DNA of 64,000 bases, from assembly GCA_963740755.1 (NCBI GenBank), contig CAVUFJ010000011.1:80822-144821 (forward strand), in the 5' to 3' direction. Below the pieces are notes generated by a model. That model was not told the DNA's origin and did no database searches. It saw nothing but the letters and a program-made list of their open reading frames with translations. The stretch comes from Rhodothermales bacterium. Lineage in GTDB: Bacteria > Bacteroidota > Rhodothermia > Rhodothermales > BA12. Position numbers and translations under genes: made by a program. Of the stretch, positions 1-64,000 are shown one piece after another. Position 1 is the stretch's first letter, and every line of letters begins with the position of its first letter.

Positions 1-1
1 C

Positions 2-451
2 CCCTACTACGACTACGGGGTGGAGCTGAGCGCGCCCAGCCGGGGCGTGGTCGTGTGGGCGATGCTGCGCGAGATCGGGGCGGAGGGGATGCGGGCGCGC
101 GTCGTGCGCCACAACGACCTCGCGCAGCGCGTGGCTGAGGCGGCGCGGCGCCATCCGAACCTCGAACTCCTGCTCGAACCCACCCTCTCGATCTGCTGCT
201 TTCGCTACGTCGCCCCCGGCGTGGACGACCTCGACCGCCTGAACCAGCGGCTCCACCGGCGGCTGCTGCGCGAGAACCAGAACCTCCCCAGCACCACGCA
301 GGTCAACGGGAAGCTCGCGCTGCGCCCGTGCTTTGTGGGCGCCCGCACCGAGACCGCCCATGCCGACGCGCTCGTGGCCGATGTGCTCCGCATCGGCGCA
401 GAGGTGGCGGCTGAGATGCAGCCCCACGCCCTGGCGGGCGGAGGCACCTGA
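2..451 (+). CDS. C-terminal fragment of a pyridoxal-phosphate-dependent (group II) amino-acid decarboxylase; the 5' end lies outside the window
   Basis: In-frame translation PYYDYGVELSAPSRGVVVWAMLREIG...LSICCFRY matches the conserved C-terminal domain of DOPA/glutamate/diaminobutyrate decarboxylase-type enzymes. The ORF runs open from the window edge. Confidence 0.55.
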   Translation, partial: PYYDYGVELSAPSRGVVVWAMLREIGAEGMRARVVRHNDLAQRVAEAARRHPNLELLLEPTLSICCFRYVAPGVDDLDRLNQRLHRRLLRENQNLPSTTQVNGKLALRPCFVGARTETAHADALVADVLRIGAEVAAEMQPHALAGGGT

Positions 452-750
452 TACCAGATCCGGCTGTAGCGTGTGTCATTGCGAGGAGCGCAGCGACGAA
501 GCAATCTCCCTATTCAGGGGCCGTAGGAGGGGATTGCTTCGCTGCGCTCGCAATGACAGCACCAACTCCTCCACCGGCGTTGGTATGATACCAGATCCGG
601 TGGAATCGTGAGGGATGACCGGGTCACGGATCATGGATCATGGTCAGAGACGCTCCGAGGCACCTCTGGCTATGATCCATGATCCCGCAGGCATTCCTGT
701 ACCCTTGGCCGGATTTGGGATGACGGGTGGCCTGCGCGGAGGCGTGAACG
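452..750. repeat. Composite intergenic repeat (R1). It has two direct copies of gataccagatccgg (456-469 and 587-600) around an ~87-bp imperfect hairpin (474-562), followed by a GATC-rich core gatcatggatcatggtcagagacgctccgaggcacctctggctatgatccatgatcccgcaggcattcc (628-705).
   Basis: Direct reading. The core recurs at 2647-2745, and in inverse orientation at 38343-38500 and 58108-58212. Confidence 0.7.
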
Positions 751-850
751 CGTGGGTTTTGCCAGGGGCAGCGCCTTCGGGTGCGGAGCAGGCGCGGATG
801 TTCGTACGCTTGGGCGGTTGCCCGTCGTTGCTCTGCTATCCTCCCGCGCC

Positions 851-59745: not shown

Positions 59746-60025
59746 TTGATAAAGTACGTGCGCAGCTGAACCTGTCAGAGTGTAACGAAAGCCCTTCCAG
59801 CATTGCAACGGAAGCCCTTCCGCCCCGGCGCGTGCCTTGACAGGCCCACAAGCGGGCGGTAACGTGCCCAACCGTCGAAGCCGGTGGGTTTTGCCTGAAG
59901 GGGCAGCGCCTGCGGTGGCGCTGCGCGTCCCGCACCGGACGCCGTTGACAAGGCTTCGGCGGACGCCCTGGCGGTGCCGTCCGGCCTGCCGCCGTGTGTC
60001 TGCGCACGAATCCCGAGGTCTGTCA

Positions 60026-63000
60026 TGCCCCCCACGTCCCCCGCCGACCTGCCTGCCCAGCAGGGGCTCTACGATCCGCAGGACGAGCACGAGGCCTGCG
60101 GGGTTGGGTTCGTGGCGCACGCGAAGGGGAAGGCGTCGCACGATCTCGTCGCGCAGGGCCTCGCGCTGCTCGCCAACCTCGCCCACCGGGGCGCCGCCGG
60201 CTGCGACCCGGCGAGCGGCGACGGCGCCGGGCTGCTCGCGCAGATTCCGCACCGGCTGTTCGCGCAGGCGCTGGCGGCGCAGGGCGTGGCGCTGCCCATG
60301 CCGGGCCGCTACGGCGTGGGGATGCTGTTCCTGCCCGCCGAGGAGGGGGCGCGGGCCGCCGCCGAAGCGCTCGTCGAGCGGGCGGTGGCGGACGAAGGGC
60401 TGGGCGTGCTTGCGTGGCGCGATGTGCCGGTGCGTCCGGAGCACATCGGAGCGGTGGCGCGGGCGTCGCAGCCGAGCATCCGGCAGGTGTTCGTGGGGCC
60501 GCAGCGAGGCCGCTGAGGGCGGGGCGGGGGGCTGGAGGCGGTGCTGTTCCGGCTGCGCAAGCGCATCGAACGGGCGTTTCGGGAGGGCGCGGCGGGCGGC
60601 TACGTGGTGAGCCTGTCGAGCCGGACGGTGGTGTACAAGGGCCTCCTCCTGCCCGCGCAACTCGGCCCCTTCTTCCCCGACCTCACCGACCCGGCTTTCG
60701 AGAGCGCGCTCGCGCTCGTGCACTCCCGCTTTTCCACCAACACGTTCCCCACGTGGCCCCGCGCGCATCCCTACCGGATGCTCTGCCACAACGGCGAGAT
60801 CAACACGCTGCGCGGCAACGTGGGCGGGATGCGCGTGCGCGAAAGCACGCTCGACCCCGCGCGCCTCGGCCTCGACGCGGCCACGCTCTTCCCCGTCATC
60901 GGCGCCGGGCAGAGCGACTCGGCCTGCCTCGACAACGCCTTCGAACTGCTCGTGCGCGGCGGGCGCTCGCTCGCCCACGCGGCGATGATGCTCGTGCCCG
61001 AGGCGCCCCACGCCGACCTCCCGCCCGACGTGCGGGCCTTTTACGACTACCACGCGGCCCTCATGGAGCCGTGGGATGGCCCCGCCGCCGTCGTCTTCAG
61101 CGACGGGCAGCAGGTGGGCGCCGTGCTCGACCGCAACGGCCTCCGCCCGGCCCGCTGGTGCGTCACCGACGACGACCTCGTCGTGCTGGCCTCCGAGGCG
61201 GGCGCCCTCGCCCTCCCGCCCGCGCGCATCCGGCAGAAGGGGCGGCTGGGGCCGGGGCACATCCTGCTGGTGGACCCTTCCGAGGGGCGCGTGCTGGAGA
61301 ACGCCGAGGTGAAGGCGCGCGTGGCGGCGCAGCAGCCCTACGGCGCGTGGGTAGAGGCCGGGCGGAGGCGCCTGCCCGAGACGCCCTTCGGGGTGCCGGA
61401 GCCCGTCCCGGGCCTGCACGCACGGCAGGTGGCCTTCGGCTACACCGCCGAGGAGCTGCGCACGGTGCTCGTGCCGATGGCCGAAACGGGCCACGAACCC
61501 ATCGGCTCGATGGGCAACGACACGCCCCTGGCCGTGCTCTCGGACCGCCCGCAACCCCTCTTCCGGTACTTCAAGCAGCTCTTTGCGCAGGTCACCAACC
61601 CGCCCATCGACCCGATCCGCGAGCGCGCGGGGATGCTGCTCGCGCTCGACCTCGGCCCGCGTCCGGATGTGCTCCTGGAAGCGCCCCGCGCACGCCCATC
61701 GCCTGCGCCTCGACAGCCCCGTGCTCACCGCCGCCGACCTCGCCGCGCTGCGCGCCGTGGCCGATGACTGGCAGCCCGCCCCCGTCTCGCTCCTGTTTCC
61801 CGCCGACGCCGGGCCGGACGCGCTCGAGCCTCGCCCTCGACCTGGTCTGCGCCGAGGCCGCCGCGCGCGTGCGGAGCGGCTGCGGGTTGCTCGTGCTCAC
61901 CGACCACGGCGTGGACGCGCGCCACGCGGCGATTCCGTCGCTGCTCGCGCGTGGCGGCCGTGCACCACCACCTCATCCGCGCGGGGCTGCGGGCGCAGGC
62001 CGCGCTCGTCGTGGAGGCGTCCGATGCGCGCGAGGTGATGCACATGGCCCTGCTCATCGGCTACGGCGCCGAGGCGGTGTGCCCGGCGCTCGTGTGGGAG
62101 ACGCTCGCCGCCCTCGCCCGGCGCGGCGACCTCGCCGACCTGCCCGGCGCGGTGCAGCGCTACCGGCAGGCGGTGGACAAGGGCCTGCTCAAGATCCTCT
62201 CCAAGATGGGCATCTCGGCGCTCCAGAGCTACGCGGGCGCGCAGGTGTTCGAGGCCATCGGGCTCGGCGGCGATCTCGTGGCGCGGCACTTCACCGGCAC
62301 GGCCTCGCGCCTGGGCGGCCTCGGGCTGCGCGAACTCGCCGGCGAAGTGCTCGCGCGCCACCGGCAGGCCTACCACACGTCCAGCACCGGCGCCCGCCTC
62401 GGCGACGACGGCGAGTACCACTACCGCAACCAGGGCGAGCACCACAACTGGAGCCCGCTCGCCATCGCCACGCTCCAGCAGGCCGCGCGCACGAACAGCG
62501 CCGCGAGCTTCGCCGAGTTCGAGCGCATCGCCGACGAGGAGCAGGCGCGCTACAACCTGCGTGGCCTCCTCGAACCGGTGGAGGGCACGCCCGTGCCCCT
62601 CGACGAGGTGGAGCCGGCGGCGGCCATCGTGCGGCGCTTCTGCACGGGCGCGATGTCGTTCGGCTCGATCAGCCGGGAGGCGCACGAGACGCTCGCGGTG
62701 GCGATGAACCGCCTCGGCGGGCGCAGCAACACGGGCGAGGGCGGCGAGGAGTCCGGGCGCTTCGGCGGCGAGCGCAGCAGCGCCATCAAGCAGGTGGCCT
62801 CCGCGCGCTTCGGCGTGACGACCGAGTACCTCGTCAACGCGCCGAGCTGCAGATCAAGATCGCGCAGGGGGCCAAGCCCGGCGAGGGCGGGCAGATTCCC
62901 GGTCCCAAGGTGGACGCGGTCATCGCGCGCACGCGCCACGCCACGCCCGGCGTGACGCTCATCTCGCCGCCCCCGCACCACGACATCTACTCCATCGAAG

Positions 63001-64000
63001 ACCTCGCCCAGCTCATCGGCGACCTCAAGGCCGTCAACCCGGCGGCGGCCATTTCGGTGAAGCTCGTGGCCGAGGCGGGCGTGGGCACCGTGGCGGCAGG
63101 CGTGGCAAAGGCCCACGCCGACCTCATCGTGATCTCCGGCGACAGCGGCGGCACGGGCGCCTCGCCGCTCTCGTCCATCAAGCACGCCGGGATCCCGTGG
63201 GAGCTGGGCCTGGCCGAAGTGCAGCAGACGCTCGTGCTCAACGGCCTGCGCTCCCGCGTGCGCCTCCAGACGGACGGCCAGCTCCGCACCGGGCGCGACG
63301 TGGTCGTCGCGGCGCTCCTCGGCGCCGACGAGTTCGGCTTTGCCACCGCCCCGCTCATCGTGGAGGGGTGCGTGATGATGCGCAAGTGCCACCTCAACAC
63401 CTGCCCGGTGGGCATCGCCACGCAGGACCCGGCGCTGCGGGCGCGGTTCACGGGGCAGCCCGAGCACGTCATCAACTACTTCTTTTTCGTCGCCGAGGCC
63501 GTGCGCGCGTGGATGGCGCGGCTGGGCTTCCGCACCGTTGCCGAGATGGTGGGCCGCACCGACCGCCTGCGCGCGCGCCTGCCCGACGCCCCCGCCAAGG
63601 CCGCCCTGCTGGACCTTGCGCCCCTGCTCCACCGTCCGGCGCCCGCGTTTGCGGCGGTATCGGGCGGCCCCGCCTGCGGTGCCGGCGACGTTGGACGACG
63701 AACTGCTGCGCCTCGCCGCGCCGGCGTTTGCCGGACGGCACGAAGGTGCGGGCGCGCCTCCGGATCGCCAACACGCACCGGTCGGTGGGCGCAGGGCTCT
63801 CGGGCGAGGTCGCGCGGCGCTTTGGCGCGGCGGGCCTGCCCGCGCACACGCTCCGCTTCCACCTGACGGGCGCGGCGGGGCAGAGCTTCGGGGCCTTCGC
63901 CGTGCGCGGCGTCACCCTCGTGCTCGAAGGCGAGGCCAACGACTACGTGGGCAAGGGCCTCTCCGGCGGCTGCCTCGTGCTGCGCCCCCCGCGCCGCGCG
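60026..64000 (+). CDS. gltB: Glutamate synthase large subunit, 5' ~4 kb only; at least five frameshifts
   Basis: N-terminal amidotransferase [18 protein letters not shown]..., central ...[24 protein letters not shown]..., FMN domain ...[18 protein letters not shown]...[16 protein letters not shown].... Homology jumps frames at about 60510, 61690, 61960, 62850 and 63660. Confidence 0.85.

Follow-up and report, generated by a model that had tools for sequence, protein, structure and literature searches.

Single-base frame changes in a 64-kb contig segment of an uncultured Rhodothermales bacterium are probably consensus errors of the assembly

We analysed a stretch of 64,000 nucleotides (the window) of contig CAVUFJ010000011.1 in the Rhodothermales assembly GCA_963740755.1, in which about 20 genes change reading frame along their length. 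The final tally was 54 events, comprising 47 insertions, 6 deletions and one ambiguous event. Each involves a single base except the ambiguous one, in an AIPR abortive-infection gene, which is either +2 or −1. The density is about one event per 1.2 kb, or ~0.84 insertions or deletions (indels) per kb. Our data suggest that these frame changes are assembly consensus errors of an insertion-prone kind and not pseudogenisation, a reading to which we give a probability of about 0.93. It is based on the codon bias and orthologue identity that the displaced gene segments retain, the 47:6 lesion spectrum, the presence of housekeeping genes among those hit, and the intact state of orthologues and of a sister strain. 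A first-pass annotation of the window had also diagnosed a sequence-quality problem, with about 45 single-nucleotide indels at a rate of one per 1.4 kb. The diagnosis is supported and the single-base frame changes are present in the sequence, but the count is ~54 (with 10 in a metzincin gene, at least 6 in the AIPR gene, 2 in vapC and 3 in a DUF445 gene), and the rate is both higher and non-uniform.

The G+C content across the window is 62–75% (~70% in the source genome), and 224 open reading frames (ORFs) of at least 100 aa were counted. Almost every frame is open in DNA of 70% G+C, and ORF lists are therefore useless for spotting frame shifts. Plain tblastn was unreliable for the same reason, as its high-scoring segment pairs run through the shifts into open off-frames, and was replaced by a purpose-written protein-to-DNA aligner that permits frameshifts. 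In addition, eleven clean ORFs of the window served to train a codon-usage model for a seven-state Viterbi decoder, which had a state for each of the six frames, a non-coding state and a heavy penalty on stops. The decoder returned ~48 sites at which coding resumed, 1–30 nt further on, in a different frame of the same strand, and the joined segments formed 18 proteins containing no stop codons. For GltB, a hidden Markov model (HMM) scan of candidate base deletions was precise to only 6–20 nt at 60–67% identity; with localisation of this kind, the exact base is not pinned in gltB and most other genes.

Same-strand codon-model changes lay within ~25 nt of the frame changes named in the first-pass annotation (positions given by the model: 1310/1527/2049/2149, 7980/8239, 12098, 14991, 17635–56, 19690, 25568/26388, 29567–29622/30346–61, 31528 and 42586, with three further sites in the MBL-fold hydrolase gene, two each in the amidase, MFS transporter and fdhA genes, one in fdhD and at least five in gltB). 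The exception is 20184, in the metzincin gene: the N-terminus of this protein is poorly conserved, and five references disagree on whether and where a shift falls between 20156 and 20369. Frame changes at 7822–50, 14461–14621, 41655, 42770, 45058, 56149 and 57033 were rejected as frameshifts, Pfam/NCBIfam matches having identified them as gene boundaries (TonB/nadD, transferase/accA, flippase/OleD-like, OleD-like/MBL, ligase/FabH-like, upstream of fdhD, and fdhD/DUF7009).

Coding content across the frame changes

Pfam matches ran unbroken across the junctions in the TonB receptor (two junctions), the GT2/CoA_binding transferase (one), FabF (one), the DUF5117/DUF4953 metzincin (at least six), the DUF445 protein (two), the MBL hydrolase (three), the amidase/Golvesin protein (two), the MFS transporter (one), FdhA (two), FdhD (one) and GltB (four). 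Once corrected, the proteins aligned with intact orthologues over 99–100% of their length at 60–79% identity. The corrected M1 peptidase aligned over 99% of its length with intact 547-aa proteins (76% identity), and corrected GltB over 99–100% with more than 100 intact proteins of ~1,510 aa. Residues 1–753 of the corrected metzincin align with uninterrupted ORFs on dozens of contigs from metagenomes, and a metagenome scan with this protein yielded 76 intact orthologues, all at ≤63% identity. A three-frame reconstruction of vapC matched the PIN profile without a break from position 2 to 118 of 120, whereas the C-terminal fragment alone matched 64–118 only. Together with the stop-free joined proteins, these matches and alignments bear out the earlier statement that protein homology can be followed across the frame changes in most long genes. 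The genes that had been described as clean (katE, ettA, deoA, the flippase and the F390-like ligase) indeed gave full-length domain matches in a single ORF each.

In the M1 peptidase gene and gltB, every frame segment had a G+C content at third codon positions (GC3) of 0.89–0.98 and no stops. Segments of at least 70 codons were 0.62–0.88 identical to the orthologue, with no drop downstream of the shifts. Signs of relaxed constraint after a lesion, namely loss of codon bias, lower identity and stops, were absent from the downstream segments of these two genes, and no truncation relative to orthologues was found in GltB, the M1 peptidase, AIPR or the metzincin. The only nonsense codon is an in-frame TAG in the AIPR gene (23108–23110, within 23103–23113 on the plus strand), where the homologue reads KFFIAV and the window KFL*AV; it is counted outside the 54. 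This TAG may be explained by a T6→T5 deletion together with a G inserted six bases later.

As the first-pass annotation had pointed out, the essential genes metK, fabF and gltB are affected alongside accessory genes (copy number was judged within the window only). None of the shifts was shared with orthologues, those of the M1 peptidase, metzincin, GltB, AIPR, MetK and FabF being single ORFs.

Public record, sister strain and lesion spectrum

The EttA ORF of the window matches, at 100% identity, a protein with a single record, on one 162,930-bp NCBI/ENA contig, and thirteen further window ORFs are recorded solely on that contig. Frameshifted products have exact public counterparts as well, each of them recorded from this contig alone: a 448-aa MetK with an out-of-frame tail, a 420-aa flotillin, a 576-aa S9 fragment and a 224-aa AIPR fragment. 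The shifts are therefore not an artefact of cutting the window from the deposited contig.

Three window proteins had cluster partners at least 90% identical in the Logan assembly of ENA run ERR11523665. The Logan contigs L167, L168 and L169 correspond to 58074–59901, 5738–7965 and 26486–27925 of the window, covering 5.5 kb at 99.2–99.5% identity. The 33 substitutions between them and the window fall on codon position 3 in 17 cases, position 1 in 10, position 2 in 2 and non-coding DNA in 4. This richness in third positions points to purifying selection, and we therefore regard the Logan contigs as a sister strain whose divergence is real. The single 1-nt gap in the 5.5 kb is at 26720, where the window has a C (gacagcg[C]ggcacgg) that L169 (99.2% identity) lacks. 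It lies inside the 28-nt interval (26695–26722) that the codon model had predicted beforehand, and the DUF445 ORF of the sister strain reads through this site without a break. In the overlaps of 2.2 kb and 1.8 kb that had no predicted frameshift (L168 and L167), none was present. Comparison with a second assembly or a close genome, which the first-pass annotation had proposed as a check, thus came out in favour of an error at 26720, and we infer that the other sites are errors of the same kind.

The M1 peptidase gene (866–2533, plus strand) was resolved at base level by a three-way DNA alignment of the window with two intact orthologues (L162 and L164; 80% nucleotide identity). The alignment contained exactly six 1-nt insertions and zero 1-nt deletions; its other gaps were of 3, 6 and 12 nt, plus 7 at the gene end. 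The insertions, all on the plus strand and all found again by the protein-to-DNA aligner, are at 1318 (1316–1319; a single-column gap, either G→GG or an inserted A), 1529 (1527–1530; gtcgc[G]caac), 1613 (1612–1615; ggcg[C]cgct), 2012 (2010–2012; GG→GGG), 2051 (2050–2052; atccg[C]gaac against atccg-gaac in the orthologue) and 2149. The last is an unambiguous A with no homopolymer (cag[A]ctc against cag-ctc). The same aligner gave one insertion each in metK and fabF and ten in the metzincin gene, three of them inside 65 nt. Compared with an intact homologue (71% identity across the full alignment), the AIPR gene had three deletions and two insertions besides the ambiguous event. At 62840 in gltB, restoring one base scored 6.8 bits better than removing two (1053.4 against 1046.6), and this event is therefore a deletion.

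Overall, insertions outnumbered deletions by 47 to 6, about eight-fold (binomial p = 6×10−9). Fourteen insertions could be pinned to ≤3 nt. Only one of these, at 2012, lies in a run of at least three identical bases, against a background of 15% of window positions, and those at 2149, 2051, 1529, 17650, 24159 and 26720 lie outside any run. Four can be explained as one base doubled. About half of the pinned insertions have an identical neighbour, which is what random placement predicts because 43% of window positions are in runs of at least two. All six deletions, in contrast, are in runs (A8→A7, A4→A3, T4→T3, GG→G and two more in runs of two or three bases). The first-pass annotation had described the defect as one extra base inside a G/C run. 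The extra base is correct for 47 of the 54 events, the six one-base deletions being the part that does not fit, but the location in a run is not borne out by the best-localised insertions. The tabulation of indels against homopolymers that it had suggested thus separates the deletions (6/6 in runs) from the pinned insertions (1/14 in a run of at least three). An association with homopolymers is the hallmark of length miscalls by nanopore, 454 and Ion Torrent sequencing.

CGCG or GCGC contexts were found at 6 of the 14 pinned insertions, against a background of 17.5% (p ~0.02, a post hoc comparison), and this enrichment could reflect a context-specific consensus error. At 1529, 1613, 2051, 12098, 17650, 26720 and ~30360, CGG in the orthologue or sister strain is typically CG[C]G in the window. 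A methylation motif or CpG context as the cause of the insertions was rejected, the enrichment being weak and post hoc only. No slippery or stimulatory motif was common to the 14 pinned sites, the contexts of which are heterogeneous.

The events are distributed in patches. Eighteen of the 54 fall within 20.6–25.2 kb and six within 0.83 kb of the M1 gene, and stretches as long as 5.8 and 7.4 kb are free of events. Event counts had a variance/mean ratio of 1.6–3.4 (p = 0.002 to 9×10−6), and 21 inter-event gaps were shorter than 300 nt, compared with 11.9 expected (P = 0.001). Dense patches lie at 1.3–2.2, 20.6–25.2, 43.2–43.5 and 61.7–63.7 kb, and densities in patches reach 5–7 errors per kb. 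Such clustering fits local variation in consensus quality and may reflect uneven coverage or polishing.

Positions of the events and neighbouring features

By protein comparison, the genes of the window appear to be nearest to uncultured Rhodothermales. In a genome-collection scan, the nearest MetK among the matches listed was that of a Rhodothermales metagenome-assembled genome (80% identity), with 75% identity to Salinivenus. EttA was 88–93% identical to metagenomic proteins and 74% identical to that of Rhodocaloribacter. In relatives with an 88%-identical EttA, synteny is limited to four genes, all in the frameshift-free part of the window, and these relatives provide no references for the broken genes.

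Downstream of the M1 peptidase gene, two net +1 changes lie in the TonB-dependent receptor gene on the minus strand (7975–7985 and 8230–8245), located by the codon model and crossed by an unbroken TonB_dep_Rec_b-barrel match (residues 209–603). The Big_2 lipoprotein gene (plus strand) has a net +1 change at 12092–12107, placed by codon model and frame reading. In the GT2/sugar-transferase gene (minus strand), the codon model gave a net +1 change at 14975–15000, and a CoA_binding_3 match (355–500) crosses the junction at residue 403. The insertion in fabF (minus strand, 17648–17652; tcg[C]gcc on the coding strand) was seen as a tblastn frame switch and in the protein–DNA alignment with two orthologues, and a ketoacyl-synt match (2–241) spans it. 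That in metK (plus strand, 19690–19691; ctcg[G]ccgag) cuts the S-AdoMet_synt_C match at 60/138; four orthologues switch frame there, in agreement with the protein–DNA alignment. The region upstream of metK, a possible place for an S-adenosylmethionine (SAM) riboswitch, gave no Rfam match at the gathering threshold. When RNA genes were sought as further indel carriers, the 64 kb contained no tRNA and no Rfam family at that threshold.

The ten insertions in the metzincin gene are on the plus strand and were all placed by protein–DNA alignment. Those at 20616–20622, 20650–20653 and 20681 were located with five intact orthologues. These three jointly restore the frame and show up in a coarse scan as a short out-of-frame blip, with a local density of ~1 in 20–30 nt. 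The insertions at 21003, which a DUF5117 match spans, and at 21514–21523 were also detected by tblastn and the codon model. The codon model likewise gave those at 21800–21818, within an unbroken DUF4953 match (368–664), at 21990–21993, 22108–22126 and 22193–22205, for which Pfam agreed, and at 22455–22461. The gene order fabF, acpP, metK, DUF4953 metzincin (window 16897–22695; L002) is common to Salinivenus lutea, and the metzincin is therefore a resident conserved gene outside the adjoining mobile island.

This island (22776–25440, corresponding to L166 377–2814) has a lower G+C content, with a GC3 of ~0.4 versus 0.9 elsewhere, and consists of the AIPR gene followed by those of an antitoxin of the MazE/AbrB type and of a PIN (VapC) toxin. 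The nearest homologue of AIPR (P0361, intact, 574 aa, on L166) likewise adjoins a PIN/PhdYeFM pair, and the association of AIPR with a toxin/antitoxin pair may be conserved. In the AIPR gene (22776–24498, plus strand), DNA comparison with L166 and protein–DNA alignment with P0361 placed the ambiguous change at 22987–22993, either +2 (an extra 'AT') or −1. The deletions are at 23148–23154 (A4→A3; protein–DNA alignment and codon comparison with P0361, KQNERI against SQNDKI), 23478–23482 (DNA and protein–DNA alignment, three references agreeing) and 24281–24287 (A8→A7; DNA and protein–DNA alignment). An A is inserted at 24159 (gct[A]tac, three references agreeing) and a G at 24333–24336 (atg[G]ttg; DNA and protein–DNA alignment). 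In vapC (~25033–25440, plus strand), the three-frame protein compared with the PIN profile and frame reading gave an insertion at 25133–25146 and a deletion at 25192–25206 (T4→T3). A possible 55th event near the 3′ end of the vapB antitoxin gene (24961–25040) would be needed to reach a TGA that overlaps the vapC ATG (ctATGAac).

The DUF445 gene (minus strand) carries net +1 changes at 25560–25575 and 26380–26395, both given by the codon model and covered by the DUF445 match (106–466), in addition to the insertion at 26720 (a C on the plus strand) in its N-terminal region. Two events in the S9 peptidase gene (plus strand) have moderate support from the codon model and frame reading: a deletion at 29612–29628, near 29617 (C3→C2 or G3→G2), with the N-terminal propeller and catalytic domains in different frames, and an insertion near the C-terminus at 30355–30367, up to which the Peptidase_S9 match extends. 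Codon model and frame reading also gave a net +1 change near the flotillin C-terminus (31520–31535, minus strand) and another in a small membrane-protein gene (38930–38945, plus strand).

A same-strand cluster at 39992–46052 encodes a Polysacc_synt flippase, an OleD-like NAD reductase, the MBL-fold hydrolase, an AMP-binding/F390-like ligase and a FabH-like ketosynthase. Its product is possibly a lipid or of olefin type; the reductase scored 209 bits against the NCBIfam OleD model, under the cut-off of 580. The reductase (epimerase) gene has a net +1 change at 42580–42592 (plus strand), with positions 2–270 of the OleD profile before it and 281–329 of 329 in the next frame. Net +1 changes at 43180–43192, 43313–43325 and 43458–43470 (plus strand) were located by the codon model in the hydrolase gene, where the Lactamase_B match (932–1152) is unbroken over the three junctions.

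Further along, one plus-strand gene has a net +1 change in its Amidase_2 domain (47125–47137; match 235–369, junction at residue 279) and another in its Golvesin_C domain (47708–47720; match 402–525, junction at residue 473). In the MFS transporter gene (minus strand), the net +1 change at 51173–51185 puts positions 95–248 and 264–408 of the NCBIfam SdrM profile in adjacent frames, and an MFS_1 match (16–202) crosses the one at 51663–51675 at residue 96. The Molybdopterin match of fdhA (335–761) is unbroken over net +1 changes at 53718–53730 and 54616–54628 (residues 443 and 742; plus strand), as is the FdhD-NarQ match (216–450) over that in fdhD at 56963–56975 (residue 431; plus strand). Compared with L167, the window alone has 18 nt (15 + 3) at 59535–59552, in-frame in a weak-coding region upstream of a PRiA4_ORF3/DUF6398 gene; this looks like a natural length variant. 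The gltB gene (plus strand) contains insertions at 61674–61690, 61825–61836 and 61946–61957, supported by the Pfam match (Glu_syn_central, 462–733, unbroken), the HMM scan and orthologue alignment over 99–100% of the length. Two more, at 63638–63679 (poorly localised) and 63725–63741, were found by codon model, HMM scan and orthologue alignment. The deletion is at 62838–62843 (gcgGcc→gcgcc) and is spanned by the Glu_synthase match.

Consensus errors weighed against biological causes

If the frame changes are consensus errors, the contig consensus would hold ~47 spurious extra bases, placed largely regardless of homopolymers, and would lack ~6 bases, all within short or long homopolymers. These extra and missing bases would shift the frame of ~20 genes whose copies in the organism itself are intact, and the patches would correspond to uneven consensus quality along the contig, caused by read depth or the reach of polishing. 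Published work traces many frameshift 'pseudogenes' in public bacterial assemblies to assembly artefacts, the occurrence of which varies with platform, assembler and coverage (PMC11017572; PMC12007338). The window resembles the indels of long-read or low-coverage assemblies (Kastor, PMC12007338; Cooley & Wright 2024, PMC11017572) in that ORFs are split into adjacent-frame pieces, essential genes are hit, deletions affect homopolymers (especially A/T), the density is ~1 per kb and the genes are otherwise intact. It differs from them in that about half of the pinned insertions are in alternating CGCG/GCGC.

In nanopore assemblies, deletions mostly exceed insertions and are tied to homopolymers, especially A/T, insertions being less so (PMC12007338), and nanopore reads contain about twice as many deletions as insertions (review, PMC4719071). 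Here, insertions prevail ~8:1, are mostly outside homopolymers and are strongly patchy. The homopolymer error model favoured by the first-pass annotation is therefore not supported: the pinned insertions mostly lie outside runs, and the insertion excess is the reverse of the nanopore reports. In PGM data, insertions are generally likelier and deletions dominate in homopolymers, and PacBio errors are random with little homopolymer effect (PMC4719071). The combination of random insertions and homopolymer deletions seems nearer to these descriptions of Ion Torrent PGM and PacBio continuous long reads than to nanopore, but this is a resemblance only, as they concern raw reads and the window is a consensus. 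The insertion-rich, non-homopolymer profile points to no particular sequencing platform.

Several points weigh against consensus error. The insertion excess and the weak link to homopolymers run counter to the nanopore profile (PMC12007338, PMC4719071). About ten sites were either called by the codon model alone (12098, 31528, 38937) or localised only to 10–40 nt. Direct independent comparison covers 1 of the 54 sites and was made with a sister strain that is 0.7% diverged, not with the same genome. Finally, the densest patch overlaps the lower-GC defence island (metzincin, AIPR, vapBC), the changes in which may include some genuine inactivating mutations.

The last point leads to a mixed explanation, in which most changes are consensus errors and a few are true inactivating mutations in the island (AIPR, vapC and perhaps the metzincin). 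Defence and toxin genes are commonly inactivated, and the 20.6–25.2 kb patch holds a third of the events (18/54), four of the six deletions and the sole in-frame stop. However, its deletions are in A/T homopolymers (A8→A7, A4→A3, T4→T3), which are classic sites of length miscalls and exist mainly in the AT-richer gene. Its insertions resemble those elsewhere, the TAG may be accounted for by two nearby indels, and the M1 peptidase gene is equally dense in ordinary 70%-GC DNA. We consider this explanation unlikely. That all shifts are real mutations, produced by massive recent gene decay in a host-restricted or hypermutator lineage, is very improbable. The shifts are really present in the deposited sequence, a large share of genes is frameshifted as in reductive decay, the events are densest in dispensable genes (metzincin, AIPR, vapC, M1 peptidase) and AIPR has its TAG. 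But mutational decay in bacteria is deletion-biased, opposite to the insertion excess observed here. Decaying genomes, such as those of Mycobacterium leprae and recent endosymbionts, show deletions, nonsense codons, expansion of insertion sequence (IS) elements and loss of codon bias, and their essential genes are spared. In the window, large deletions and IS elements are lacking and the only nonsense codon is that in AIPR. Codon bias and identity to orthologues hold up beyond the shifts, and metK, fabF and gltB are hit. By extrapolation, breakage would extend to over half of all genes. The 99.3%-identical sister strain is intact at the one overlapping site.

Alternatively, the extra bases could be real and the frame restored by programmed +1 ribosomal frameshifting, transcriptional slippage or RNA editing. 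The near-uniform +1 direction would suit a single compensating mechanism, and the downstream frames are still fully coding. In conflict with this, the pinned sites have no slippery or stimulatory motif in common, six events go in the opposite direction, none of the shifts recurs in the orthologues of the six proteins compared, and the base at 26720 is missing from the sister strain. We know of no bacterium that decodes dozens of +1 shifts per 64 kb, and regard recoding as scarcely credible. Equally hard to believe is its boldest form, in which dozens of genes per 64 kb would be expressed through efficient, motif-independent +1 recoding or deletion of RNA bases. In a weaker variant, some of the events in the AIPR, vapBC and metzincin island would be true mutations marking the recent inactivation of a defence island. 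Consensus error thus accounts best for the frame changes.

The significance of this result is one of data hygiene: the frame changes would be an ordinary artefact and not biology. With ~0.84 indels in every kb, the majority of genes above 1 kb on the contig would be miscalled as fragments or pseudogenes, and protein databases already carry chimeric products such as the 448-aa 'MetK'. Correction focused on homopolymers would mend only a minority of the events. On the other hand, a simple codon-bias frame model places events within ~25 nt in a high-GC genome without a reference, and the reads of ERR11523665, from the sister strain, are a ready resource for checking all 54 sites. The earlier caution against trusting any pseudogene call in this window, the defence genes included, still stands. 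Gene loss, inactivated defence systems (AIPR, vapBC), metabolic gaps or completeness inferred from this genome would be wrong.

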